Source of the DNA: an uncultured Gammaproteobacteria bacterium
Lineage (GTDB): Bacteria > Patescibacteriota > Microgenomatia > Levybacterales > UBA12049
Length of the DNA: 64,000 bases
NCBI GenBank assembly: GCA_964523705.1
Contig: CAZFYA010000002.1
Coordinates: 47,114 to 111,113, forward strand
Reading direction: 5' to 3'
Positions 20,252 through 47,000 of this stretch are shown piece by piece. The notes under the pieces are model-generated. The model was not told the DNA's origin. It made no database searches and saw only the letters and a list, made by a program, of their open reading frames with translations. Both the position numbers and the translations under genes were made by a program. Within the stretch, counting starts at the first letter, position 1, and each line of letters starts with the position of its first letter.

Positions 20252-20521
20252 TTACAGTCTTTTTAGTAATTGTAAATTGCTCTGAATTAAGGATTTCTTT
20301 TTTGCTCTTGTCCATTTTTTAATCTGTATTTCTCTTTTCATTGCTTCCTGAAGAGTTTTATATTTTTCATAATAAACAAGTTCCACCGGTTTTTTACCAC
20401 GAAGATATTTAGCAGACTTACTTTTACCTGAATTATGTTCGGTTATTCTTCTTTTAAGGTTATTGGTTTGTCCGCAATACAAAGAATTGTCAGAACAACG
20501 GACTATGTAGAAGAAATACAT
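20252..20521 (-). CDS. GIY-YIG nuclease-superfamily small protein (UPF0213/YhbQ-like)
   Basis: 89 aa. YFFYIVRCSDNSLYCGQTNNLKRRITEHN (GIY...YIG...R..EH). Confidence 0.8.
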   Translation of the reverse strand: MYFFYIVRCSDNSLYCGQTNNLKRRITEHNSGKSKSAKYLRGKKPVELVYYEKYKTLQEAMKREIQIKKWTRAKKKSLIQSNLQLLKRL

Positions 20522-20620
20522 ATGGTTCGGCTTATTTCATTCGCTCACCACCTTCTTTTCGCTTGAGCTATAGCCCTGAGCGAAGTCGAAGGGCTGGGAG
20601 TTGTGGATTCGAACTAATTG

Positions 20621-20693
20621 CGAGCCGCCGGGGGATCGAACCCCGAACCTATTCCTTAAGAGGGAATTGCTCTACCAATTGAGCTAGCGGCCC
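20621..20693 (-). tRNA. tRNA-Lys (anticodon CUU)
   Basis: Reverse complement is GGGCCGCTAGCTCAATTGGTAGAGCAATTCCCTCTTAAGGAATAGGTTCGGGGTTCGATCCCCCGGCGGCTCG. Anticodon loop CTCTTAA. Confidence 0.85.
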
Positions 20694-20751
20694 TTTTACT
20701 TCAATCTTGTATTTTAGTATACTATATCAAGCACTCTTAAACAACAATTAT

Positions 20752-20824
20752 GCGCCTGTAGCTCAATGGATAGAGCACTTCGCTTCGGACGAAGTGGTTG
20801 GGGGTTCGACTCCCTTCAGGCGCG
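20752..20824 (+). tRNA. tRNA-Arg (anticodon UCG)
   Basis: GCGCCTGTAGCTCAATGGATAGAGCACTTCGCTTCGGACGAAGTGGTTGGGGGTTCGACTCCCTTCAGGCGCG. Anticodon loop CTTCGGA. Confidence 0.8.
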
Positions 20825-20853
20825 CTAAATTTTTATTCTGCCTATAATCCTTT

Positions 20854-23199
20854 ATGAATAGTAAAGTTTTAAAAATTTTTAAGATATTTTTAGGTTGGCC
20901 AATCACAATAATTTCCTTTATTTTTATTTTTAAAATCATTGCCGATAAATCAGTTGAAGTTATTCCTCTTATAAGTAGTATTAATTTACTTAATTTAGCC
21001 TTAGGACTGTTTTTTTTAATTGCTTTTTTCTTTTTAAGAGGATATTTATGGCATCTTTTAATTAAAAAGGAAGCTAAAATTGAGGCAAAAGAGTCGCTTA
21101 ATCTTTGGGCACTTGCAGAACTTAAAAGGTACACTCCTGGAAATATTTGGTCTTTTTTAGGGCGGGCATTTTCCTTTGAAGAGAAGGGGATAACTAAAAA
21201 GAAAACTGCATTATATCTTTTATACGAGGCTGAATTTTTTATTTTTGGCGCAACTATTGTTTCGTTATTTTCCTTAAAATACACACTTAATCTTTTAAAT
21301 ATTATGCTTGAGGAAAATGTTATCTTGTTAATCTATGTTATCTTCTTTTTACTTCTTTTTCTTTTTATATTCAACAAAAAAATAAAAGCTTTTCCTAGGT
21401 TAAATTATTTAAATAATATAAAGTTAACTCTTCTTTCAACTATTGCTTTGTTTTGTTTTGGAATTGGAAGCTACTTCTCAGCTATCTCTCTATTTAATTT
21501 AGATCTTAGGAATTTTTTATTTGACAGCAGCTTTTTAACTTTTTCTCTTTTAATAGGCTATTTATCAATTATTACACCCATGGGGTTTGGAATAAGAGAA
21601 CTAATAGTTATACTTGGCTTTTCAAAACTAATTGGACTTGAAAATGCCGGAATTTTATCTATTTTTATAAGAGTAGTACTTATCCTTTCAGAGTTAATTT
21701 TTGTATTTTTTGTAACAAGAATAAACAGCATTAAACAAAATATTTTTAATAAACTATATTTTTATATAAGCAAAAATGCTCATGAATTTCTCCTGTTAAT
21801 TGGAACGTTATTTTATTTTCTATACTTTACAATTGCTTCTTTTCTTCGTTTTGATAATTTCTATACCGGAAAATTTGACCTTGGCAATATGGCGCAGACT
21901 GTCTGGAATAGTTTAAATGGTAATCTTTTCATGTTAACAAACCCAAATGGCATAGAGCTTGTCTCAAGGCTATCATTTCATGCCGATTTTGCCTTAGTTT
22001 TTCTTACTCCTTTTTATTATCTTTGGCCAAGCCCAAAAGTTCTCCTTTTAATTCAAACACTAATTATTTCACTTGGTGCAATTTATGTTTATTTAATTGC
22101 AAAGCATGTTTTAAAAAACAAAAATATTGCTTTATTATTTTCTTTTATTTACTTAATTAATCCTCTTACTCAATACGTAAATCTTTATGATTTCCATGCA
22201 GTCTCCTTTGCAATCACGTTTTTATTGGCAGCTTTTTATTACATTCTTAAAAGAAAATATTATTTATTTCTTGTTTTTTCTATCTTAGCAGCTTTAACAA
22301 AGGAGGAAATTTGGCTTACATCAGGAATGATGTTTTTTTATTTTTATATAAAGAACTATAAAATTAAAAATATTAATTACAAAAAAACATTAAGCCTTAT
22401 TTTTGGTCTTTTGTCTTTTATAATATTTTATTATTCAATCTGGGTTTTAATACCAGGTGCATCAGGAAATAGCCATTTTGCGCTGTCGTATTATTCAGAA
22501 TTTGGTGATTCACCGGGAATTGTAGTTAAAAATATTATTTTAAATCCGTTTAAAACTTTTGCAATTGTATTTCACGAAAAAAATATAGACTATTTATATA
22601 ATCTCTTTGCACCTTTAGGATTCTTGTCCATTTTTAGCCCGCTGTATTTAATATTTGCTCTTCCTGATTTAATCATAAATTTGTTAAGCAATAATAAGCA
22701 ATTAAGTGATATTTATTATCAATACACATCCGGTATTATTCCGTTTCTTTTTATCTCTTCAATTTATGGTTCTAAATTTATCTTAAAAAAAATTGGTAGT
22801 AATGTTTTAATCATTTATTTATTAATTGTTTCTTTTGCCTCCGCTTATTATATTGGACCCCTGCCATTTTCAAAAAATCCAAATACAGACATGTTTATAA
22901 AACAGGTTGAAGAAAAAGAGGAGATAAAAAGCTTTTTAGATAAAATACCAAAAGATGTAAAGGTTTCAGCAACAAATAACTTAGGTGCTTATCTTGCAAA
23001 TAGGGAATACCTATTTGTAATTCCGGTTGGAACAAAAAGTGCAGATATGCTTGTATTCCTACTTAATGATAGCTATGCTCAACCATCACTTAATGCGCAA
23101 AAAGAAATGGCAAAAGATTTTGAGAATAATTTAAATTATGAATTGGTATATAAAAATGGCGATTTTGTGGCATTGAAAAAGAAAAATATTGCTAAATAA
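20854..23199 (+). CDS. Large polytopic membrane protein: N-terminal flippase-like/UPF0104 (LPG-synthase-TM-like) region fused to a DUF2079/GT-C-like putative glycosyltransferase
   Basis: 781 aa and more than 20 predicted TM helices. The N-terminal ~290 aa contain RYTPGNIWSFLGRAFSFEEKG. The C-terminal ~480 aa contain FDLGNMAQTVWNSLNG, a long loop and a soluble C-terminal domain. Family names are by recollection. Confidence 0.45.
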   Translation: MNSKVLKIFKIFLGWPITIISFIFIFKIIADKSVEVIPLISSINLLNLALGLFFLIAFFFLRGYLWHLLIKKEAKIEAKESLNLWALAELKRYTPGNIWSFLGRAFSFEEKGITKKKTALYLLYEAEFFIFGATIVSLFSLKYTLNLLNIMLEENVILLIYVIFFLLLFLFIFNKKIKAFPRLNYLNNIKLTLLSTIALFCFGIGSYFSAISLFNLDLRNFLFDSSFLTFSLLIGYLSIITPMGFGIRELIVILGFSKLIGLENAGILSIFIRVVLILSELIFVFFVTRINSIKQNIFNKLYFYISKNAHEFLLLIGTLFYFLYFTIASFLRFDNFYTGKFDLGNMAQTVWNSLNGNLFMLTNPNGIELVSRLSFHADFALVFLTPFYYLWPSPKVLLLIQTLIISLGAIYVYLIAKHVLKNKNIALLFSFIYLINPLTQYVNLYDFHAVSFAITFLLAAFYYILKRKYYLFLVFSILAALTKEEIWLTSGMMFFYFYIKNYKIKNINYKKTLSLIFGLLSFIIFYYSIWVLIPGASGNSHFALSYYSEFGDSPGIVVKNIILNPFKTFAIVFHEKNIDYLYNLFAPLGFLSIFSPLYLIFALPDLIINLLSNNKQLSDIYYQYTSGIIPFLFISSIYGSKFILKKIGSNVLIIYLLIVSFASAYYIGPLPFSKNPNTDMFIKQVEEKEEIKSFLDKIPKDVKVSATNNLGAYLANREYLFVIPVGTKSADMLVFLLNDSYAQPSLNAQKEMAKDFENNLNYELVYKNGDFVALKKKNIAK

Positions 23200-23226: not shown

Positions 23227-24033
23227 ATGATAAACGTTGTAAAAGCCACAGGTGAAATCGAACCATTTTCTGAAAGTAAACTTAGGTCCTCAATAAAAAG
23301 AGCAGGGGTGCCGGATAACCAAGCAGATCAACTTATTGAATATATTAAGTCAAACTTGTATGACAATATTCATACCTCGCAAATCTACAAATACATTGAG
23401 GACTTTTTCAAAAAAAATAATTCCTATGCAAGATCAAGGTATAGCCTAAAACAAGCCTTAATGGATTTAGGTCCAACCGGATACCCGTTTGAGGATTACG
23501 TTGCTGATATTTTAGAAAATGAAGGATACAAAACAAAGGTAGGGCAAGTTATCCAGGGAAAGTGCATTACTCATGAAATAGATGTTATAGCAGAAAAAGA
23601 TAGCAAAAAAGTAATAATTGAAGCAAAATTCCATAATGCCGCTGGTATTAAGACTGATTGCCATGTTGCTATGTATACAAAAGCAAGGTTTGATGATTTA
23701 TCAAAAATAAACGGTTTTTCAGAAGCTTGGATTATTACCAATACAAAGGTAACTAAGGACGCCCTAAATTTTGCTTTATGTTCAAACATGAAAGTTATTG
23801 GCTGGAACTACCCGAATGGTAATAGCTTAAGAGAAAAAATTGAACACTCAAAACTATTTCCAATAACTGCCCTTACCACTCTTTCCCAAAACCAAAAACA
23901 ACAATTAATGCAAGAACATATAATAATGTGTAAGGACCTTATTAAAAATTTAAATGTTTTAGACTCCTTATCCTTTCAGAAAAATAGAAAAGAAAAAGTA
24001 CTAGAAGAAGCTAGATTTATCTGCAGTGAGTAA
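23227..24033 (+). CDS. ATP-cone domain protein fused to a restriction-endonuclease-like (PD-(D/E)xK, Mrr-like) domain
   Basis: N-terminal ~90 aa (VVKATGEIEPFSESKLRSSIKRAG) resemble an ATP-cone. The central region has HEIDVIAEKDSKKVIIEAKFH (D...ExK-like). Confidence 0.4.
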   Translation: MINVVKATGEIEPFSESKLRSSIKRAGVPDNQADQLIEYIKSNLYDNIHTSQIYKYIEDFFKKNNSYARSRYSLKQALMDLGPTGYPFEDYVADILENEGYKTKVGQVIQGKCITHEIDVIAEKDSKKVIIEAKFHNAAGIKTDCHVAMYTKARFDDLSKINGFSEAWIITNTKVTKDALNFALCSNMKVIGWNYPNGNSLREKIEHSKLFPITALTTLSQNQKQQLMQEHIIMCKDLIKNLNVLDSLSFQKNRKEKVLEEARFICSE

Positions 24034-25275
24034 TTATACTTCTACAAGCTTATACCTTTCATGTTTATCCGCTAAATAACCGTTTGGAACCGTAGTTAAT
24101 TTATCTGAATAAAGTAAAAAGCCATTTCTTATTGTATGGTCTCCAAACTTACTATTTATGTTATCTATTGTTTTTGTAAGCTTTTCCTGTTTTTGATCAA
24201 CGTCAAACAGGGAAAGGTTTGTATTTTTTCTATCTTTTAAATTTGAAACCCAAAGATGAATCTGTCTTACATATTTTTCTTTTATTAAATCATTTTTAAA
24301 ATAGGGGAGAGAAAAGTTATAGATTTCCCTACCTGTATCAACATATTCTTTAAATGTTTTTCTAAAATGAATATTTTTGTCCCCAACTAAAAAAACCGCT
24401 ATTGTTCTTCCTTTTTTACCAAGTCTTCTAAGCTTTATTCCAATCTCTTCTGATAATTCATAAATATTTTGTAAAATTATTCTTTTATTAGATTCATTCT
24501 TAGGTAAACAATAACTTCTACTAACAGATTTTACCTCTAAAGGCACGGTGTAGGGAATAACTTTTGAATCATCAATTCCAAGACCTACTCTTTGTAAAAA
24601 ATTTCCCTCAACGTTTCCAAATTCATTTATTAATAACTTAAGTGGTGCATTTCGAAGTTGAATTAAGTTAAAAATTCCAATTTCATTTAGCCTTTTTTTA
24701 ATTCGCTCTCCAATTCCACAAACATCAGTAAGCTTTGTGTTTTTATACACACTTATAACATCTTCTTCTTTTATTAAAGTTTTTCCATTAGGCTTATTTA
24801 GTCCTGAAGCAAGTTTTGCTAAAAGCTTATTATGTGATATCCCAAAAGAAGCAGTAATGTGTTCACCAATCTCTTTACTTATTCTTCTTTTAATAATTGC
24901 AATTGTTTTTTCAACTCCACCAAAGAGATTTTCGGTTTTTGTAATATCCATAAATACTTCATCAATTGAAAAAAGTTCTGTAAACGGAGAATAGTCCTTG
25001 CAAATATTTAAAAACTTTTTGGAGACTTCAAAGTATTTATTAAAATTAGCAGGGACTAAAATTAATTTGGGACAAATTTTTAATGCCTCATAGCTTTTTG
25101 AACCGGTTTTTATACCAAGCTTTTTAGCTTCTCTACTTGAGGCAATAATACAAGTTCTGCTGTTCGCCGCCGTAACACCTAAAGGCCTGCCCCTAAGCTT
25201 TGAATTATATTGTTGTTCAACACTGGCAAAAAAAGAATCAAAATCAATATGGAGGATAATTTTTTGAGCAGTCAT
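24034..25275 (-). CDS. dinB: DNA polymerase IV (Y-family translesion polymerase)
   Basis: MTAQKIILHIDFDSFFASVEQ (canonical DinB N-terminus with catalytic Asp residues), SIDEVFMD, little-finger region. The true start is at 25275; the track ORF extends upstream. Confidence 0.9.
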   Translation of the reverse strand: MTAQKIILHIDFDSFFASVEQQYNSKLRGRPLGVTAANSRTCIIASSREAKKLGIKTGSKSYEALKICPKLILVPANFNKYFEVSKKFLNICKDYSPFTELFSIDEVFMDITKTENLFGGVEKTIAIIKRRISKEIGEHITASFGISHNKLLAKLASGLNKPNGKTLIKEEDVISVYKNTKLTDVCGIGERIKKRLNEIGIFNLIQLRNAPLKLLINEFGNVEGNFLQRVGLGIDDSKVIPYTVPLEVKSVSRSYCLPKNESNKRIILQNIYELSEEIGIKLRRLGKKGRTIAVFLVGDKNIHFRKTFKEYVDTGREIYNFSLPYFKNDLIKEKYVRQIHLWVSNLKDRKNTNLSLFDVDQKQEKLTKTIDNINSKFGDHTIRNGFLLYSDKLTTVPNGYLADKHERYKLVEV

Positions 25276-25346
25276 AAGAAAATTATAGAAAAAAAATACG
25301 AAGAAAATCAATATGACCAAGTTGGTCAAAGGACATCAAAAGTTAG

Positions 25347-26697: not shown

Positions 26698-26775
26698 TGG
26701 GGTGGCTGAGGGGAATTGAACCCCCGACCCTCTGGACCACAACCAGATGCTCTAAGCCACTGAGCTACAGCCACC
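26698..26775 (-). tRNA. tRNA-His (anticodon GUG) with genomically encoded G-1 and 3' CCA
   Basis: Reverse complement is G-GTGGCTGTAGCTCAGTGGCTTAGAGCATCTGGTTGTGGTCCAGAGGGTCGGGGGTTCAATTCCCCTCAGCCACC-CCA. Anticodon loop TTGTGGT. The extra 5' G pairs with discriminator C73. Confidence 0.85.
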
Positions 26776-26779
26776 ATTG

Positions 26780-26852
26780 CGACCCGAGCGCGAATCGAAC
26801 GCGCAACCTACTCCTTAGAAGGGAGTTGCTCTATCCGTTGAGCTACCGGGCC
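26780..26852 (-). tRNA. tRNA-Arg (anticodon UCU)
   Basis: Reverse complement is GGCCCGGTAGCTCAACGGATAGAGCAACTCCCTTCTAAGGAGTAGGTTGCGCGTTCGATTCGCGCTCGGGTCG. Anticodon loop CTTCTAA. Confidence 0.8.
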
Positions 26853-26874
26853 ATATTATATAATATATAATTTG

Positions 26875-26946
26875 AGCGGCGGAGCGGATTCGAACCGCCG
26901 ACCTTCTCCTTGGAAGGGAGACATTCTACCACTGAACTACCACCGC
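26875..26946 (-). tRNA. tRNA-Gly (anticodon UCC)
   Basis: Reverse complement is GCGGTGGTAGTTCAGTGGTAGAATGTCTCCCTTCCAAGGAGAAGGTCGGCGGTTCGAATCCGCTCCGCCGCT. Anticodon loop CTTCCAA. Confidence 0.8.
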
Positions 26947-27042: not shown

Positions 27043-27972
27043 ATGGGAATTAAGGAAAATATAGATAGATTGCAACAAGAAAAACAACGACATATTGCTG
27101 AACAAGAAGCACGGAGAAAGAAAGAAAAAAGAGAAAGGGAAGCTGAGATAAAAAAAAGAGATGTTTTGTTTCAAGCACAAAACCGACTTAACGATGAGAT
27201 TTGCTCCGAAATCTTCCTCCCGCAGCTTATAGAATTAAATGATTTACTTAACTCTTCTAATGGTTCGCATCAAGACCTAAATATATATAAACTAAGCGAA
27301 ACATTTACTGCTATATATTATGGTGGGGAGACCACAGACGGTTGCTGCGTAAACGTAGTCTGTAATGGTTTTGTCTTAGCCGGAGGATACATTAGACGTT
27401 GGAAATTCGCAGCTTTATCTACTATAGGAGGGGAAAGCAAAACATACAGAGATCCAATTTTTGTAGGCAGGATGACTACAGCAAGGGCAATCAGTTGTAA
27501 CGTTGAAGAAAAAGTAGGGGGTTATAAAAAGTACAATTATCATGAAGGTGAAGATAAAGAAAATCATACTGGAATTATTCATGTAAAAAAATACACAGAT
27601 AGTCGTTTTGATGATGAAAACATTTTGGTTTGTGATATGAAAACTCAGAATTCTATAAAAAACTTATTGCTTCCTACTGACGATGGGTGGTTTCTAGGAA
27701 AAAATATTGAAGATAATCAAAGTGTTTTTGCCAGGCTTTTAGTAGATGCTGCAGAAGATGCAAATAAAAAAAATTTGTCAGGAGATGACAGTTTTTTTGT
27801 TGGGAACAATAATTATGGGACCTATAGAATCTATGTTCCATTAACTACTCCATCAGAACTTGATTATTATTTACCTCAAATACAAGATCCAAGATCCGAT
27901 CTAAGAAGGAAACTTAGCGAAAAAAGTGAAGAGATATTTATAGATATAGCTAAACGTAAACTTGGCTTATAA
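27043..27972 (+). CDS. Hypothetical protein (309 aa): N-terminal charged coiled coil, Cys-rich globular C-terminal domain; orphan gene between tRNA clusters
   Basis: Uninterrupted ORF with higher GC than neighbours. No recognised motif. CCVNVVCNG Cys cluster. Confidence 0.5.
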   Translation: MGIKENIDRLQQEKQRHIAEQEARRKKEKREREAEIKKRDVLFQAQNRLNDEICSEIFLPQLIELNDLLNSSNGSHQDLNIYKLSETFTAIYYGGETTDGCCVNVVCNGFVLAGGYIRRWKFAALSTIGGESKTYRDPIFVGRMTTARAISCNVEEKVGGYKKYNYHEGEDKENHTGIIHVKKYTDSRFDDENILVCDMKTQNSIKNLLLPTDDGWFLGKNIEDNQSVFARLLVDAAEDANKKNLSGDDSFFVGNNNYGTYRIYVPLTTPSELDYYLPQIQDPRSDLRRKLSEKSEEIFIDIAKRKLGL

Positions 27973-32833: not shown

Positions 32834-34102
32834 GTGGTTATTATTTTCTTAACCACTCTATTTTTGTATTTAACAAACGACAAAAGAGAGGAAATAACGT
32901 ATCAAACCGATACGGCAATTAAGGGAACCTTAATTGCCTCAATTGAGGGATCGGGAACCATAAATTCAGGCAATAGTACAGATATCCAAACTAAGGTTTC
33001 AGGCGTTGTAAGTAAAGTCTATGTTACTAATGGTGATACAGTTGAAAAAGGACAACAGATTGCCTTAGTTGAGCTGGATGAATACGCACTTGAGAGGCAA
33101 AATGCCGCCTGGGTTGATTATTTAGAAGCATTAGAAGATGTAAAAGATTCAGAGAGAGCTAAAGCAACAGCAGACATTGCCATGTGGGAAGCAAGACAGG
33201 ACATTATTGATGCTGAAGAAGATATTAAATATTATCAGGAAAACCCCATAAACCAAACAACAGGAGAAGAATATACGGTTAATGAAAAAGCAATCATTGA
33301 TAAATCCCTTGATGAAGCAAATAAAGCTTACAGTGCAGCAGAAATAAAATACAAGGATGCTGATGCAAAAATAGCCGATTATAATACAAAAGTAAGCTCA
33401 GCCTTAAGAGATTATCAGCAAAATTCTGCAATTATTTATGCACCAACTTCAGGAGTAATAAGTGACTTAACTCTTGCACCAAATGTAGTTGTTGCCGCCT
33501 CATCAAGTATTAGTAATACCAGTGGTCAAACCATAATCTCTTCGCAAACTGTTGGAAAAATAAACAATCCAACCGGACAAATTATCGCAACTATTACTCT
33601 TTCCGAGGTAGATATTATAAGCGTTAAGGCAAACCAAAAAACTACCCTGACTTTAGACGCTTATCCCGATAAAACATTTACCGGAAAGGTATTAGGTGTA
33701 AATACCAGCGGGACAGTTAGCTCTGGAGTAACCTCATATCCTGTTACCATACTTTTAGATAAAGTTGATGTTGATATTTATCCCAATATGGCAGTAAACG
33801 CAATAATAATTACCTCTGTTAAAACTGATGTTATTTTAATTCCAACAACCGCAATTACAACTGTAAATAATGCCTCAACCGTTCAAGTTAAAAAAGATAA
33901 TGAAATTTTAACAATTACCATTGAAATAGGAAGCTCAAATGACACTCAAACAGAAATTATTTCCGGAATAAGTAAGGGAGATGAAATTATAACATCTGTA
34001 ATTAATGAAAATAGCAGTAAGGAAGACAATACAACCTCTCCTTTTAGCGGGGTAGGAAACAGAAGTACAGGTGGTAGTAGAATGCCGATGGGAGGACTTT
34101 AA
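32834..34102 (+). CDS. HlyD-family periplasmic adaptor / membrane fusion protein (MacA-like), module 1
   Basis: N-terminal TM anchor. Biotinyl-lipoyl-like GQQIALVELDE. Long coiled coil. Beta-barrel region. Confidence 0.7.
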   Translation: MVIIFLTTLFLYLTNDKREEITYQTDTAIKGTLIASIEGSGTINSGNSTDIQTKVSGVVSKVYVTNGDTVEKGQQIALVELDEYALERQNAAWVDYLEALEDVKDSERAKATADIAMWEARQDIIDAEEDIKYYQENPINQTTGEEYTVNEKAIIDKSLDEANKAYSAAEIKYKDADAKIADYNTKVSSALRDYQQNSAIIYAPTSGVISDLTLAPNVVVAASSSISNTSGQTIISSQTVGKINNPTGQIIATITLSEVDIISVKANQKTTLTLDAYPDKTFTGKVLGVNTSGTVSSGVTSYPVTILLDKVDVDIYPNMAVNAIIITSVKTDVILIPTTAITTVNNASTVQVKKDNEILTITIEIGSSNDTQTEIISGISKGDEIITSVINENSSKEDNTTSPFSGVGNRSTGGSRMPMGGL

Positions 34103-34105
34103 GAA

Positions 34106-34789
34106 ATGACAACCTCTCTTATAAAGACTGAGAACCTCACTAAAATTTACAAAACTAGTGATTTGGAAACAAAAGCGCTAGAAAATATTAATCTTAAAAT
34201 TAGTAAAGGTGATTTTGTAGCAATTATGGGCCCTTCAGGTAGTGGAAAATCCACCTTAATGCATATATTAGGTGCTTTAGATTTACCCACCGAAGGCAAA
34301 TATTTTTTAGACAATCAAGACGTAGGTAAGCTGACTGATGATAAACTCGCAGAAATAAGAAATAAGAAAATTGGTTTTGTTTTCCAGGCATACAATTTAC
34401 TTCCCAGAATTTCCGCTTTAGAAAACGTAGTAATACCAATGGAATATGCAAATATTGATGAAGAAAGTGCCAAAAAAAAAGCCAAACAATTATTAGAAAT
34501 GGTTGGGCTTTTAGATAGATTAAATTATCCTCCGAACAAATTATCGGGTGGACAACAACAAAGAGTGGCAATTGCAAGAGCTTTAGTAATGGATCCGGCA
34601 ATCATCTTAGCTGATGAACCAACCGGAAACATTGCCTCAATCCAAGCAGAAGAAATAATGTCAATTTTTAAAAAATTAAATAAAAAAGGCCATACGATTA
34701 TTATGATTACCCATGAACCAGATATCGCAAGGCATGCAAAAAAAATTATCTTTATAAAAGACGGCAAAATTATCAAACAAAAAATATGA
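34106..34789 (+). CDS. ABC transporter ATP-binding protein (MacB/LolD-type), module 1
   Basis: Walker A GPSGSGKST. Signature LSGGQQQRVAIARAL. Walker B ILADEPTG. Confidence 0.9.
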   Translation: MTTSLIKTENLTKIYKTSDLETKALENINLKISKGDFVAIMGPSGSGKSTLMHILGALDLPTEGKYFLDNQDVGKLTDDKLAEIRNKKIGFVFQAYNLLPRISALENVVIPMEYANIDEESAKKKAKQLLEMVGLLDRLNYPPNKLSGGQQQRVAIARALVMDPAIILADEPTGNIASIQAEEIMSIFKKLNKKGHTIIMITHEPDIARHAKKIIFIKDGKIIKQKI

Positions 34790-36009
34790 AATTACTAAGA
34801 TTAGTTAAAAATGGCTTTAAAAACCTATCAATTAATAAGATGAGAACAGGTCTTGCAATACTTGGCATTATTATTGGAATCGGAAGCGTAATTACCTTAG
34901 TTTCCATGGGTGAGGCAAGTAAACTTGCTGTTCAATCACAAATTCAATCAATCGGCTCAAATCTCTTAACTGTTTCCCCGGGCTTTCAATCATCAGGAGG
35001 AGTAAGAGGAGCAATGGGACAAGCAACAACTCTTACTAATGATGACGCTAAAGCAATAAAAACATCGGAGAAAATAACAACCATTAAAAACGTATCACCT
35101 GAATATCAGGGAAGAGAACAAGTTATTTACCAAGGGAATAATACTAATACACAAATCATCGGAGTTGAATCAGTTTACGCTGAAGTTAGAAAAATAAACA
35201 TGGCTTCTGGAAGTTTTATTACAGCACAACAAAATAGTGCAATATCCAAGGTTGCAGTTCTTGGACCAACTGTAGTTAGTGATTTATTCGGTGAAAATAT
35301 AAATCCAATTGGAAAATCAATTAGGATTTCAGGAAAATCCTTTACTGTAATTGGCGTTACCAAGTCAAAAGGCGGATCGGGAATGGACAATACTGATGAT
35401 CGAATATACATTCCTCTTTCAACTGCTCAAAAACAAGTTTTTGGGATTAAATATTTAACTTCTATTGCTCTGGAGGCAAAAAGTGAGGACGTTATGACAA
35501 AAGCACAAAACGAAGTAGGCTACCTTCTTTTAGAAAAGCATAAGATTTCAGATGTAGCAAATGCTGATTTTCGAATTATGTCACAGGCTGACATTTTAGA
35601 AACAGCCTCTTCAGTTACTCAAACCTTCACAACCCTTCTTGCTGGAGTAGCAGCAATTTCTCTTTTAGTAGGAGGAATTGGAATTATGAATATTATGCTT
35701 ATGTCAGTAACTGAGCGAACAAGGGAAATAGGTTTAAGAAAAGCACTTGGCGCAAAGAGAAAAAATATCATTCAGCAATTTTTAGCTGAATCCATTATTC
35801 TCACTTTTTCAGGAGGAATAATTGGAGTTTTTTTAGGAATTTTAGGATTTTATATCTACTCAACAATAAATGAATCCACTTTTATAATCTCCCCAACTTC
35901 AGTTTTACTTGCTTTTTTTGTATCTGTTGGAATTGGTATAATTTTTGGCTGGTATCCTGCTCAAAAAGCAGCCAAGCTTCAACCAATAGAAGCTCTAAAA
36001 TATGAGTAA
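34786..36009 (+). CDS. ABC transporter permease (FtsX/MacB-type with periplasmic domain), module 1
   Basis: N-terminal TM, large periplasmic domain, C-terminal FtsX-like 3-TM bundle. Overlaps the ATPase gene by 4 nt. Confidence 0.85.
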   Translation: MKLLRLVKNGFKNLSINKMRTGLAILGIIIGIGSVITLVSMGEASKLAVQSQIQSIGSNLLTVSPGFQSSGGVRGAMGQATTLTNDDAKAIKTSEKITTIKNVSPEYQGREQVIYQGNNTNTQIIGVESVYAEVRKINMASGSFITAQQNSAISKVAVLGPTVVSDLFGENINPIGKSIRISGKSFTVIGVTKSKGGSGMDNTDDRIYIPLSTAQKQVFGIKYLTSIALEAKSEDVMTKAQNEVGYLLLEKHKISDVANADFRIMSQADILETASSVTQTFTTLLAGVAAISLLVGGIGIMNIMLMSVTERTREIGLRKALGAKRKNIIQQFLAESIILTFSGGIIGVFLGILGFYIYSTINESTFIISPTSVLLAFFVSVGIGIIFGWYPAQKAAKLQPIEALKYE

Positions 36010-36587: not shown

Positions 36588-37829
36588 ATGGGCAAAATTA
36601 CAAACTTTATTAAAAAACCGTTTTTAAGATTTAACAAGCTTTCAAAAATAAAAAAAATAATTGTTGTTGTAATTGTTGTTTTTATTACTATTGGACTTCA
36701 ACAATACTTTGCAAATAAAAGTGCAAATGGATATATCCTAGAGAAAGCTAAAATTTCCTCAATTACAGAAATTGTTTCTGAAACAGGAAATATTGAAACC
36801 ACTGGAAGAGCTGATATCTATTCTACAACAAATGGAATTATTGACGAACTATACGTTAAAAACGGCGATTTAGTAAAAAGAGATCAGGAGTTGTTTAAGG
36901 TAAAAAGCACAGCAACTATTCAGGAACAGCAGGCAGCTTATACTAACTATTTAACTGCAAAAGCAGCGCTAGATTTAGCTCTAGCAACAGATTATGACTT
37001 ACGATCGGACATGTTTACTAAATGGGATACCTACAGAGACATGGCAACAAGTGATGAATATGAAAATGATGATCAAACCCCAAGGGAAAATCAAAGATTA
37101 GCAGCAGAATTTCAATCAGCACAAGATGACTGGTTGTCAGCTGAAAAGAAATATAAGGACCAGCAAACATCAGTCGCAAAAGCGCAGGCAAATATTAACT
37201 CAACCTGGCTTTTATATCAGGCAACCCAAAATTCAACTGTCCTTGCACAGGCAGACGGAACGGTTTCTAATTTAGCAGTAGGCGTTGGAAGCAATGTATC
37301 AGCATATGTAAGTCCTGTTGTTTCAGTAACTCCTGTTTTAACAATTGCTAATTTTTCAAAATATACTGCTAAATTTTTACTTAATGAAACAGATGTTTAT
37401 AAAGTAAAACCGGGGCAAAAAGTAACTTTGGAGGCAGATGCGGTTGACAACAAGGAATATCAGGGGGTTGTCGAAAGAGTCGATGAAATCGGGACAGATT
37501 ATAATGGAGTTGCTAAATACAGTGTTTATGTTGAAATTACAAATCCCGATGAAAGATTAAAATTTGGAATGACAATTGATGCTGACATTATAACCAATAA
37601 GCTTGATAATGTTCTAACTGTACCAAACTCTGCTGTTAAACCATATAAAAACGGTAAGGCGGTAAGAATAGTTGACCCACAAACTAAAGAAGTAAAATAT
37701 ATTCCAGTTGTAATCGGCATTAAAGGAACCAAGGAAACTCAAATTATTAAAGGGATAAGTGAGAATCAAGAAATTATAACCTCGCTTAAAAACGAACAAA
37801 TAAAAAGAACAGGAATGTTTGGAATGTAG
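36588..37829 (+). CDS. HlyD-family periplasmic adaptor (MacA-like), module 2
   Basis: TM anchor, lipoyl-like GDLVKRDQELFKV, coiled coil, beta-barrel. Paralogous to 32834-34102. Confidence 0.7.
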   Translation: MGKITNFIKKPFLRFNKLSKIKKIIVVVIVVFITIGLQQYFANKSANGYILEKAKISSITEIVSETGNIETTGRADIYSTTNGIIDELYVKNGDLVKRDQELFKVKSTATIQEQQAAYTNYLTAKAALDLALATDYDLRSDMFTKWDTYRDMATSDEYENDDQTPRENQRLAAEFQSAQDDWLSAEKKYKDQQTSVAKAQANINSTWLLYQATQNSTVLAQADGTVSNLAVGVGSNVSAYVSPVVSVTPVLTIANFSKYTAKFLLNETDVYKVKPGQKVTLEADAVDNKEYQGVVERVDEIGTDYNGVAKYSVYVEITNPDERLKFGMTIDADIITNKLDNVLTVPNSAVKPYKNGKAVRIVDPQTKEVKYIPVVIGIKGTKETQIIKGISENQEIITSLKNEQIKRTGMFGM

Positions 37830-37835
37830 GTTTTA

Positions 37836-38540
37836 ATGCAAAAAAAAGCCCCACTATTAATTGAGCTAAAAGATATTGTGAAGCGCTATCCATTAGAAAG
37901 CGGGGAATATTATCAGGCTCTAAATGGAATAACCTTAAGCATTCATGAAGGTGAATACGTTGCAATTATGGGCCCCTCGGGTAGTGGAAAATCAACCTTA
38001 ATGCATATTATTGGAGCGTTAGATACACTAACTGGCGGTAAATATTTATTAAAACAAAAAGACATTACAAGTTACACAAGTGATCAGCTGGCTGAAATAA
38101 GAAACAAGGAAATCGGTTTTATTTTTCAATCATTCAATCTTTTACCAAGAACTACTGTTTTTAAAAACGTTGAGCGACCAATGCTTTATGCAAAAATTAA
38201 CGCAGATGATAGAAAAAGAAGGGTAGTAAAGGCCTTAGAAGAAGTTGGGATATTAGATAAAGCGCAAAATTTTGCAAATCATATTTCAGGAGGACAAATT
38301 CAAAGAGTAGCAATTGCAAGAGCTTTAATTATGAATCCCTCAATTATCTTAGCCGATGAGCCAACCGGAAACTTAGATACGGCAAGGTCTCATGAGATTA
38401 TGGATATTTTAACCAAGCTTAACAAGGAAGGAAAAACAATTGTTCTTATTACTCACGAGGACGATATTGCAGAACATGCTAAGCGAAAAATAAAATTACT
38501 GGACGGAAAAATAGTAACTGATCAGAAACTAGGAAAATAA
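37836..38540 (+). CDS. ABC transporter ATP-binding protein, module 2
   Basis: [44 protein letters not shown]. Confidence 0.9.
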   Translation: MQKKAPLLIELKDIVKRYPLESGEYYQALNGITLSIHEGEYVAIMGPSGSGKSTLMHIIGALDTLTGGKYLLKQKDITSYTSDQLAEIRNKEIGFIFQSFNLLPRTTVFKNVERPMLYAKINADDRKRRVVKALEEVGILDKAQNFANHISGGQIQRVAIARALIMNPSIILADEPTGNLDTARSHEIMDILTKLNKEGKTIVLITHEDDIAEHAKRKIKLLDGKIVTDQKLGK

Positions 38541-38542
38541 AT

Positions 38543-39760
38543 ATGGAATACAAAGAATCATTATTGTCATCTATTTACGCTTTAAAAATGAACAAGCTTA
38601 GGACATTTTTAACTATGCTTGGAATAATTATTGGAATATCTTCAGTTATTCTAATTGTTTCAATAGGACAAGGCGCAGTTGCTTTTGTTACTAATGAGCT
38701 ATCATCCTTTGGCACAAATGTTTTTTCCATAAACCCCGGGAGTAATTTAATGAGCGCAACAGCAGGAGCAGCAAACACCTTAACAATGGATGATGTTGAT
38801 GCAATAGAGGAAGATACATCAATTTCTTCAAACATTGAGCTAATTGGGATTAATGCAATGGGAACTGTTAATGCTAGCGCTAATGGAATTGATAAAAGCC
38901 TTATGGCTGTTGGGGCATCATCTGAAATGTACTCTATTTTTAATCCTGATATGATTTATGGCGAGTTTTATCAGGAAGAAGACGACTTATCTTCAGAAAG
39001 AGTAGTAGTTTTAGGAACGGATGTAGTTGAAACATTTTTTGGAAAAGACGCAAACCCGGTAGGAGAGAGAATAAAACTTGACAACATGCCTTTTAAAATT
39101 GTCGGTGTTGCAGAATCAACTAGTTTTCTAGCCGGGGGAATGCTTAATAAATCTGCTTATATTCCAATTTCAGTTATGTTTAATCAAATTCTAGGGGAGG
39201 AATATGTGCAGGAAATTGATATTACGGTAAAAAACACTGAAACAATGAATCAGACAATAGAGGATGTAGAGATATTATTAAGAGATAGACACAACTTAAA
39301 AGAAGATGAGGAAAATGATTTTATTATCCAAAGCTTTCAGGATATGTTAACAACTGTTGAAACAATAACTAACCTTTTAACTCTTATGGTTGCAGCAATT
39401 TCAACAATTTCTCTTGTTGTCGGCGGTGTAGGGGTAATGAATATTATGTTTGTTTCGGTAACTGAAAGAACAAAAGAAATCGGTCTTCTAAAGGCAATTG
39501 GTGCAAGAGAAAGTGATATTCTAAAGCAGTTTTTAATTGAAGCAATTGTAATGACTTCTTTTGGAGGAATCATCGGAATAATTATCGGAGCTTCGCTTTC
39601 ATTTTTAGTATCTATGGTTGCCGGGATTCCGTTTGTAGTAAGTCCTTTTGCAATACTGGCTGCAGTTGGTGTCTCAATGGGAGTTGGAATAATCTTTGGT
39701 ATTTACCCTGCCAAAAAGGCAGCAAGACTTTCTCCAATTGACGCCTTAAGGTATGAATAG
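38543..39760 (+). CDS. ABC transporter permease (FtsX/MacB-type), module 2
   Basis: Same architecture as 34786-36009. Confidence 0.85.
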   Translation: MEYKESLLSSIYALKMNKLRTFLTMLGIIIGISSVILIVSIGQGAVAFVTNELSSFGTNVFSINPGSNLMSATAGAANTLTMDDVDAIEEDTSISSNIELIGINAMGTVNASANGIDKSLMAVGASSEMYSIFNPDMIYGEFYQEEDDLSSERVVVLGTDVVETFFGKDANPVGERIKLDNMPFKIVGVAESTSFLAGGMLNKSAYIPISVMFNQILGEEYVQEIDITVKNTETMNQTIEDVEILLRDRHNLKEDEENDFIIQSFQDMLTTVETITNLLTLMVAAISTISLVVGGVGVMNIMFVSVTERTKEIGLLKAIGARESDILKQFLIEAIVMTSFGGIIGIIIGASLSFLVSMVAGIPFVVSPFAILAAVGVSMGVGIIFGIYPAKKAARLSPIDALRYE

Positions 39761-46572: not shown

Positions 46573-46620
46573 AAGCCATGTTTCAGTGCCTGCACTGAGG
46601 TCATTTTCAAATGACCGAAG

Positions 46621-46693
46621 TGCCGAGAGAGTGAGTCGAACACTCATCTGATGTTCTTCAGACACCCGCCGTGACCACCTTGGCTATCTCGGC
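46621..46693 (-). tRNA. tRNA-Phe (anticodon GAA), non-canonical D-arm
   Basis: Reverse complement is GCCGAGATAGCCAAGGTGGTCACGGCGGGTGTCTGAAGAACATCAGATGAGTGTTCGACTCACTCTCTCGGCA. Perfect acceptor and T-arm. Anticodon loop CTGAAGA. The D-stem has a mismatch. Confidence 0.6.
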
Positions 46694-46725
46694 AAAAGTT
46701 TAATTATTATACAACATTTAATTTG

Positions 46726-46799
46726 TGGGCTCTAGAGGACTTGAACCTCTGACCTCTTCGGTGTAAACGAAGCGCTCTAGCCAGCTGAGCTAAGAGCCC
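46726..46799 (-). tRNA. tRNA-Val (anticodon UAC)
   Basis: Reverse complement is GGGCTCTTAGCTCAGCTGGCTAGAGCGCTTCGTTTACACCGAAGAGGTCAGAGGTTCAAGTCCTCTAGAGCCCA. Confidence 0.85.
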
Positions 46800-46804
46800 T
46801 TTTG

Positions 46805-46891
46805 TGCCGAGGACAGGACTTGAACCTGCACGCCTTTTTAAAGGGCACAAGAACCTCAATCTTGCGTGTATACCAGTTTCACCACCTCGGC
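46805..46891 (-). tRNA. tRNA-Leu (anticodon GAG)
   Basis: Reverse complement is GCCGAGGTGGTGAAACTGGTATACACGCAAGATTGAGGTTCTTGTGCCCTTTAAAAAGGCGTGCAGGTTCAAGTCCTGTCCTCGGCA. Long variable arm. Confidence 0.8.
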
Positions 46892-46917
46892 GTGTAAGTA
46901 TTTTACCACAAAGAATG

Positions 46918-47000
46918 TGCCCAAGGGGAGATTCGAACTCCCATACTCTCTCGAGTACTAACTCCTGAAGCTAGCGCGTCTACCGTTTCGCCACCTGGGC
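46918..47000 (-). tRNA. tRNA-Leu (anticodon CAG)
   Basis: Reverse complement is GCCCAGGTGGCGAAACGGTAGACGCGCTAGCTTCAGGAGTTAGTACTCGAGAGAGTATGGGAGTTCGAATCTCCCCTTGGGCA. Long variable arm. Confidence 0.8.

Follow-up and report, generated by a model that had tools for sequence, protein, structure and literature searches.

A conserved family that places an ATP-cone directly ahead of a PD-(D/E)xK nuclease site, and its possible role as an adenylate-gated nuclease

The DNA analysed here (the window) is a stretch of 64,000 nucleotides from contig CAZFYA010000002.1 (assembly GCA_964523705.1, positions 47,114 to 111,113 of the forward strand), placed by its GTDB lineage in the Levybacterales of the Patescibacteriota. 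The gene at 23227..24033 on its plus strand codes for a predicted soluble enzyme with three domains that belongs to the AF1548 family. The open reading frame (ORF) is uninterrupted and its start coincides with the start of all close homologues (MxNVxKAxGE...); an identical protein (100%, entry P0001) is already present in NCBI. The features of the gene are the following (aa, amino acids; HhH, helix-hairpin-helix).

23227..24033, plus strand: complete gene for an ATP-cone/PD-(D/E)xK/HhH-like protein of 268 aa, ATG start, TAA stop
23230..23466, plus strand: ATP-cone domain, aa 2-80, with a beta-hairpin lid (strands 3-5 and 11-13) and helices 16-25, 30-42, 50-63 and 68-79
23467..23493, plus strand: linker L81-G82-P83-T84-G85-Y86-P87-F88-E89, between the final helix of the ATP-cone and the first helix of the nuclease
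23479..23826, plus strand: PD-(D/E)xK nuclease core (Mrr_cat/AF1548-type), aa 85-200, with E89, D119, E132 and K134 as predicted catalytic residues
23491-23493, plus strand: E89, acidic residue in the helix preceding the motif
23581-23583 (gat), plus strand: D119, predicted catalytic position
23620-23622 (gaa), plus strand: E132, predicted catalytic position
23626-23628 (aaa), plus strand: K134, predicted catalytic position
23857..24021, plus strand: C-terminal AF1548-like helical domain, aa 211-265, HhH-like, probably DNA-binding

Three Pfam models matched the protein above their gathering thresholds: ATP-cone (PF03477; aa 2-71, model positions 1-79 of 88, 40.2 bits against a threshold of 25.8, E=4.9e-10), Mrr_cat (PF04471; aa 85-186, 32.1 bits against 21, E=1.4e-7) and AF1548-like_C (PF22357; aa 211-265, 25.0 bits against 23.9). 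The same hmmscan run returned nothing beyond these three, neither Mrr_N nor another modification-reader domain. A phmmer search of PDB sequences matched AF1548 of Archaeoglobus fulgidus (1Y88) over aa 91-263 with E=1.1e-33; with a profile of the family the E value for 1Y88 fell to 8e-46, and the N-terminal 97 residues also matched E. coli NrdR (E=5e-4). The similarity to AF1548 is full-length and extends through its C-terminal helical domain, giving the combination of Mrr_cat and PF22357 by which AF1548-like proteins are recognized. Since the match to 1Y88 is this strong and the same architecture recurs in 3,406 sequence clusters, the arrangement of domains lies far above chance.

The AlphaFold2 model, built on 30 homologues, has a predicted local distance difference test score (pLDDT) of 89.8 and a predicted template modelling score of 0.82, with no segment below pLDDT 50. 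Its N-terminal domain forms a beta-hairpin lid above a four-helix cone, as an ATP-cone requires, and the nuclease core shows the alpha-beta-beta-beta-alpha-beta fold of the PD-(D/E)xK superfamily. Fold matches of the model comprised the ATP-cones of NrdR and of ribonucleotide reductases (RNRs; 8vhp, 5im3, 7agj, 5olk, 9d3x and 8p23 among them), AF1548, NucS, Can2 and restriction enzymes, with Card1, Cdn1, MspJI, AspBHI and Shedu SduA as other structural neighbours.

A sequence-only reading of this DNA had taken the N-terminal ~90 aa for an ATP-cone and the following region for an Mrr-type PD-(D/E)xK domain, and had named Pfam searches and structure prediction as the way to check this. Both approaches give an ATP-cone and a restriction-endonuclease fold, and the motif quoted in that reading is found as H116-E-I-D119-V-I-A-E-K-D and I130-I-E132-A-K134-F-H136, with the catalytic E/D/ExK residues kept. 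The proposed fusion thus holds for both of its domains; what it overlooked is the C-terminal HhH-like domain and the kinship of residues 91-263 with AF1548. Judged from sequence and model, we regard the domain-level reading as secure, namely a predicted adenine-nucleotide sensor, a PD-(D/E)xK nuclease domain that appears catalytically intact and a putative HhH-like DNA-binding tail.

Conservation was measured on 143 full-length representatives, each drawn from a distinct 50%-identity cluster. For genomic context, ORFs were called in 80 species-level loci, neighbours were clustered by BLAST, and recurrent clusters were annotated with Pfam and NCBIfam; the target was recovered by ORF calling in 78 loci, which are the ones scored (36 Levybacteria-like, 17 from other Patescibacteria and 25 Bacteroidota-like), and the gene is also intact in loci L062 and L076. 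Eleven positions are invariant among the representatives (G82, G85, F88, E89, G111, E117, D119, K134, R154, D157 and N172), E132 is kept in 142 of 143 (99%) and P83 in 141 of 143. No stretch of the protein is more conserved than the LGPxGxPFE linker, which in the model is also the part with the lowest local pLDDT (82). It connects the last ATP-cone helix (Y72, K75) with the helix bearing the catalytic E89, and may act as an allosteric relay. Residues D38, E51 and K53 of AF1548 were predicted to be catalytic in a restriction-endonuclease-like protein in the 2007 Global Ocean Sampling (GOS) paper (PMC1821046); they correspond to chain residues D51, E64 and K66, which phmmer aligns with D119, E132 and K134 of the window protein.

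Further conserved residues lie in the nuclease domain. C113 (23563-23565) and C185 (23779-23781), both outside the PD-(D/E)xK motif, are 97% conserved family-wide, and H116 (23572-23574) and H136 (23632-23634) are 95% and 92% conserved. In AF1548 the two cysteines and H136 are retained, with Gln in place of H116. The four residues may form a metal site or include a redox-sensitive pair.

For the N-terminal domain, NrdR is the nearest ATP-cone relative by both sequence and structure. Nucleotides in E. coli NrdR are contacted by V51, K53, S54, E59, P60, F61, K65, L66, R72, S105, I108 and Y131 (bioRxiv 10.1101/2025.03.28.645925). In the phmmer alignment the window protein has V4, K6, A7, E12, P13, F14, K18, L19, R25, T50 and I53 as counterparts; ten of the 12 contact positions are identical or conservative, and S54 is replaced by Ala. 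Family-wide, K6 and K18 are conserved at 99%, G9 at 96%, F14 at 91% and T50 at 90%. The canonical ATP-cone motif is K-R-D-G, and the window protein has K-A-T-G in its place; because E. coli NrdR (K-S-N-D) does not carry the canonical Arg either, this sequence does not count against nucleotide binding.

The kinship with NrdR, together with the presence of XisH-type excision controlling factors (also PD-(D/E)xK proteins) among the fold matches, raises the question of whether the protein might be a nucleotide-responsive regulator, an NrdR analogue in which the PD-(D/E)xK and HhH parts bind DNA and do not cut it. A non-catalytic scaffold would be unexpected, given that all four catalytic residues are 99-100% conserved across the family. 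The protein also has no Zn-ribbon and reaches only 14.4 bits against the NrdR equivalog TIGR00244 (cut-off 124.65), through its ATP-cone part only, and no conserved adjacency to RNR genes was seen in the scored loci. We consider such a regulator very improbable.

The family is large and uniform. A word-indexed search gave the 3,406 clusters mentioned above (at 90% identity), almost all of 265-285 aa and with the same architecture, some of whose members carry the database names 'restriction endonuclease', 'ATP cone domain-containing protein' or 'HJR/Mrr/RecB family endonuclease'. An exhaustive HMMER search of 1.84 billion representatives found 1,144 50%-identity clusters at E<=1e-3, of which 449 reached E<=1e-30, nearly all of 265-295 aa, and a species-level genome scan confirmed at least 572 loci in at least 572 species. 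Carriers in Patescibacteria include Levybacteria, Gottesman-, Chisholm-, Davies-, Wildermuth-, Lloyd- and Jorgensenbacteria, Saccharimonadia and WWE3; Bacteroidota carry the gene too, including the cultured Fluviicola chungangensis and Cyclobacterium lianum, and single genomes of Dehalococcoidia, Acidobacteriota and Chlamydiota are among the carriers listed. Where sequences are unusually short or long, the cause is a truncated gene call, an insertion or a low-complexity artefact. Two apparent variants lacking the ATP-cone (P0209 and P0265) were considered and rejected, as they look like truncated gene calls. With the architecture already catalogued in pre-computed Pfam annotations and in NCBI names, the window gene is an ordinary member of a large family. 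In the literature searched, no paper describes or assays the ATP-cone-nuclease fusion, the only relevant one being the 2007 GOS prediction (PMC1821046).

The tree of the family follows taxonomy. A neighbour-joining tree separates Microgenomates, Parcubacteria-like and Bacteroidota clades and places the window protein within Levybacteria; the Chlamydiota and Acidobacteriota copies nest inside the Bacteroidota clade, suggesting occasional transfer. Across 27 syntenic loci, mean identity to the window copy is 54% for the ATP-cone nuclease, between the values for the neighbouring DUF2079 membrane protein (47%) and the polymerase DinB (57%), and the gene therefore diverges like the core genes around it.

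Many metagenome-assembled genome records (Third Party Annotation, TPA) bear the title 'uncultured Gammaproteobacteria bacterium' (loci L009-L011, L014, L026, L027, L032-L035, L041 and L061). Their loci are low in GC, of Levybacteria type and share the synteny; in the tree the proteins group with Patescibacteria, most of them in Levybacteria and that of L061 in the Parcubacteria-like clade. The titles of these records are probably wrong.

A nuclease domain whose top-scoring profile is Mrr_cat calls for a consideration of anti-phage defence. The protein could be a solitary type IV, Mrr-like restriction enzyme or an abortive-infection effector; in the latter version the ATP-cone would sense a collapse or shift of the nucleotide pool upon phage infection and release a non-specific nuclease, in the manner of Can2 and Card1. 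The structural neighbours Can2, Card1, Cdn1, MspJI, AspBHI and Shedu SduA are in line with this possibility, as is the combination of sensor and nuclease, which follows the same logic as in effectors activated by cyclic oligoadenylate. PADLOC gave weak partial matches of the window protein to CARF_PDDEXK and PDC-S02 (E ~7e-4, ~60 residues). Against this, ten neighbouring proteins in the window had no PADLOC match, and neither methyltransferases nor defence clusters recur in the 78 scored loci. A scan of IMG/VR and a tblastn search of 50,697 phage records gave no homologue. The adjacent cognate methyltransferase of a type II restriction-modification system is lacking, and the marks of a type IV Mrr-like enzyme are missing as well: there is no reader domain, no more than a partial, weak match to curated defence models, no location in a defence island and no patchy spread. 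Inheritance along taxonomic lines, core-like divergence and a mean column identity of 64% in the alignment of homologues, which is very high for a defence gene, also speak against it. Defence was therefore rejected as the leading explanation, and we judge a restriction or abortive-infection role improbable. Of the 'defence or stress effector' proposed from sequence, the defence part does not survive the missing links to phages, viruses, defence islands and methylases, the taxonomic tree and the core-like rate, and the stress or metabolic part fits better.

A metabolic role is hinted at by the genomic context in other phyla. In Bacteroidota, Chlamydiota and Acidobacteriota the gene heads a cassette with genes for a beta-CASP nuclease, a thymidine phosphorylase (TP)- or AMP-phosphorylase-like enzyme and a phosphoribosyl pyrophosphate (PRPP)-synthetase-like enzyme. 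In 16 of the 25 Bacteroidota-like loci, a same-strand gene for a beta-CASP metallo-beta-lactamase nuclease, a TP-like or a PRPP-synthetase-like protein occurs within five genes downstream, and the gap from the target to the next gene ranges from -22 to +48 bp. The TP-like genes match NCBIfam PRK04350/TIGR02645, with the AMP-phosphorylase model just under its cut-off, and the PRPP-synthetase-like genes belong to the PRK07199 subfamily. An identical four-gene cassette is annotated in RefSeq on a plasmid of Pontibacter actiniarum and on one of Criblamydia sequanensis, where it is flanked by genes for phosphoketolase, glycogen phosphorylase, acetate kinase and a P-type ATPase. Bacteroidota-like loci also contain P-type ATPases, universal stress proteins and ArsR.

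Metal-homeostasis genes adjoin the target in eight loci outside Levybacteria (L054, L055, L061, L066, L067, L079, L088 and L090), comprising P-type ATPases (CopA-type or type-II cation pumps), CsoR- or ArsR-type metal-sensing repressors and a multicopper oxidase; reading frames sometimes overlap.

Taking domains, conservation and context together, we put a probability of roughly 0.5 on the protein being an adenylate-gated housekeeping DNA nuclease that would, under energy or nucleotide stress, serve in the controlled turnover of nucleic acids or in nucleotide salvage. The N-terminal ATP-cone would bind adenine nucleotides (ATP, possibly dATP, ADP or AMP), the PD-(D/E)xK core would act as a metal-dependent nuclease through its intact E89...D119...E132-x-K134 site, and the C-terminal HhH-like module would grip DNA without sequence specificity. 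Nucleotide occupancy of the ATP-cone would then set nuclease activity, which on the present analysis is the most likely mechanism. Gating could proceed through the invariant GPxGxPFE linker leading straight into the catalytic helix, or through nucleotide-dependent oligomerization as in NrdR and RNRs. DNA cleavage would in this way be coupled to the adenylate or deoxynucleoside triphosphate (dNTP) status of the cell, presumably as a core function in Patescibacteria and as an operon-encoded one in Bacteroidota, Chlamydiota and Acidobacteriota. The housekeeping role in turnover or salvage is proposed because the gene behaves as a core gene in Patescibacteria and belongs to a salvage-flavoured operon in other phyla. 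The analysis establishes the fold and domain architecture, the conservation of residues, the phyletic spread and the gene contexts; that the protein binds nucleotides and cuts as a nuclease, which way it is regulated, what it acts on and what it does in the cell are inferred.

Several observations weigh against this interpretation. The Arg of the canonical K-R-x-G motif is Ala or Ser in the family (K-A/S-x-G), and the counterpart of NrdR Tyr131 is only a guess (Y72); with these two contacts changed or uncertain, both nucleotide specificity and binding itself are putative. The window was searched for beta-CASP, TP-like, PRPP-synthetase, P-type ATPase, universal stress protein and ArsR genes, and none is present; neither the window nor any of the Patescibacteria loci examined contains the salvage cassette, and carrying the salvage hint over to the window gene thus leans on orthology at ~40% identity. 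The 17 non-Levybacteria Patescibacteria loci show no consistent partner, with CsoR plus CopA, MnmA and MgtC as occasional neighbours, and a salvage role does not account for the recurrent P-type ATPases and CsoR/ArsR repressors. The literature searched holds no assay of any family member, AF1548 being a 'hypothetical protein' in the PDB.

A more far-reaching proposal, which we regard as speculative and on balance unlikely, is that the family forms the regulatory entry of an undescribed pathway leading from nucleic acid to phosphoribosyl units or energy and switched by adenylate charge. The ATP-cone-gated DNA nuclease and the beta-CASP exonuclease would free nucleotides, and the TP/AMP-phosphorylase-like and PRPP-synthetase-like enzymes would process them. 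Patescibacteria depend on scavenged nucleic acids; there the nuclease, standing alone, would make up the conserved core of the process.

The immediate neighbours of the gene in the window are a membrane-protein gene and dinB, in agreement with the position given by the sequence-only reading (between a giant membrane-protein gene and dinB).

20854..23199, plus strand: DUF2079 membrane protein, 781 aa, upstream with a 27-bp gap (PF09852, E=7.9e-68)
24034..25329, minus strand: DinB/IMS translesion polymerase, 431 aa, convergent downstream (PF00817, E=5.9e-44, plus IMS_C)

Pfam annotation of the neighbours in the window yields DUF2079, DinB, MFS, GIY-YIG and NlpC/P60. In 34 of the 36 Levybacteria-like loci a DUF2079 gene precedes the target on the same strand, at a distance of no more than five genes; in 28 of all 78 scored loci it is the immediate upstream neighbour, and it occurs in none of the 17 other Patescibacteria or 25 Bacteroidota-like loci. 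Convergent DinB is found downstream in 29 of the 36 Levybacteria-like loci, often overlapping tail-to-tail, and in none of the 42 loci of the other groups. As the pairing does not extend beyond the Levybacteria-like clade, this context is best described as lineage synteny, and DUF2079 and DinB were rejected as functional partners.

The DinB adjacency is what a DNA-repair role would explain. The protein could be a structure-specific endonuclease of the NucS/EndoMS or Hjc kind, tuned to the dNTP/ATP pool and acting with translesion synthesis; generic fold similarity to NucS and Hjc fits this idea. The similarity to NucS is confined to the generic PD-(D/E)xK core (16-19% identity), the DinB adjacency occurs in one lineage only and is tail-to-tail rather than operonic, and no repair gene recurs beside the target in other Patescibacteria or in Bacteroidota. 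A repair nuclease thus appears doubtful to us, and the adenylate-gated housekeeping nuclease is retained as the preferred reading.

The stop codon of the target (24031-24033) abuts that of dinB (24034-24036) with a 0-bp gap, and in related Levybacteria-like loci the tail-to-tail overlap reaches 27 bp. A scan for promoters and terminators around the gene found sites no more numerous than in shuffled sequence and therefore does not bear on the transcription unit; with no terminator-like site between the two genes, their transcripts would be mutually antisense. Downstream of the target in five other Levybacteria-like loci (L029, L032, L036, L038 and L041), DinB stands together with a small membrane protein resembling GlsB/YeaQ, a LexA/UmuD-like S24 peptidase and an ORF of ~86 aa that is conserved. 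This group looks like an SOS-type mutagenesis cassette, and in that form it is absent from the window.

Other features of the window were recorded in passing. A module of a periplasmic adaptor-like gene, an ATP-binding cassette (ABC) ATPase and a MacB/FtsX-type permease (clusters c8/c3/c5) occurs twice in tandem, at 32834-36009 and 36588-39760; other Levybacteria-like genomes carry one copy, immediately before the DUF2079 gene, and in the window the module is duplicated and located ~10 kb downstream. The window holds 17 tRNA genes (8136-50052), some of them tightly clustered at 26698-26946 (His, Arg, Gly) and 46620-47000 (Phe, Val, Leu, Leu), with tRNA-Lys and tRNA-Arg immediately upstream of the DUF2079 gene (20620-20825). 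A 309-aa ORF at 27043-27972 has a charged N-terminus, appears coiled-coil-like by eye and has no Pfam or PADLOC match. A stand-alone GIY-YIG ORF of 89 aa lies at 20252-20521; similar small ORFs recur, sometimes in pairs, in related Levybacteria loci (for instance L003 and L006).

To our knowledge, ATP-cones have so far been studied experimentally only as the activity switch of RNR and the sensor of NrdR. If the adenylate-gated nuclease is real, it would extend ATP/dATP allostery to DNA degradation and offer a handle on how nucleic-acid turnover is coupled to energy and nucleotide status in genome-reduced Patescibacteria and in stressed Bacteroidota and Chlamydiota; if the pathway outlined above exists, its nuclease would be the first enzyme beyond ribonucleotide reductase for which regulation by an ATP-cone is shown. 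Because the architecture is already catalogued, we see the value of the gene in a testable family and not in an unusual locus: a widespread, strongly conserved group of proteins places an ATP-cone sensor directly ahead of a nuclease active site.

Among the closest known systems is the archaeal AF1548 (PDB 1Y88), whose crystallized chain begins ~22 residues before the nuclease helix and lacks the ATP-cone; AF1548 gives the fold but no mechanism. In NrdR the ATP-cone is C-terminal and the output is a Zn-ribbon, whereas in the window protein the ATP-cone is N-terminal and the output would be the nuclease and HhH parts; NrdR regulates RNR genes, to which the window family shows no link. The RNRs (NrdA, NrdD and the NrdB of Leeuwenhoekiella) resemble the window protein in carrying an N-terminal ATP-cone fused to a presumably regulated enzyme, but the catalytic partner belongs to an unrelated enzyme class and the motif is the canonical K-R-D-G instead of K-A/S-x-G. 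Mrr and other type IV PD-(D/E)xK restriction endonucleases share the catalytic family PF04471 and the E...D...ExK motif; unlike the window protein, they carry a modification-reading winged helix at the N-terminus, and the window protein differs further in its core-gene-like inheritance outside any defence-island context. In Can2, Card1 and Cdn1, finally, the sensor is a CARF domain, whereas here it is an ATP-cone with no CRISPR or CBASS association. The ligand of the CARF/SAVED effectors is a second messenger, cyclic oligoadenylate, while that of the window protein would presumably be a primary metabolite.
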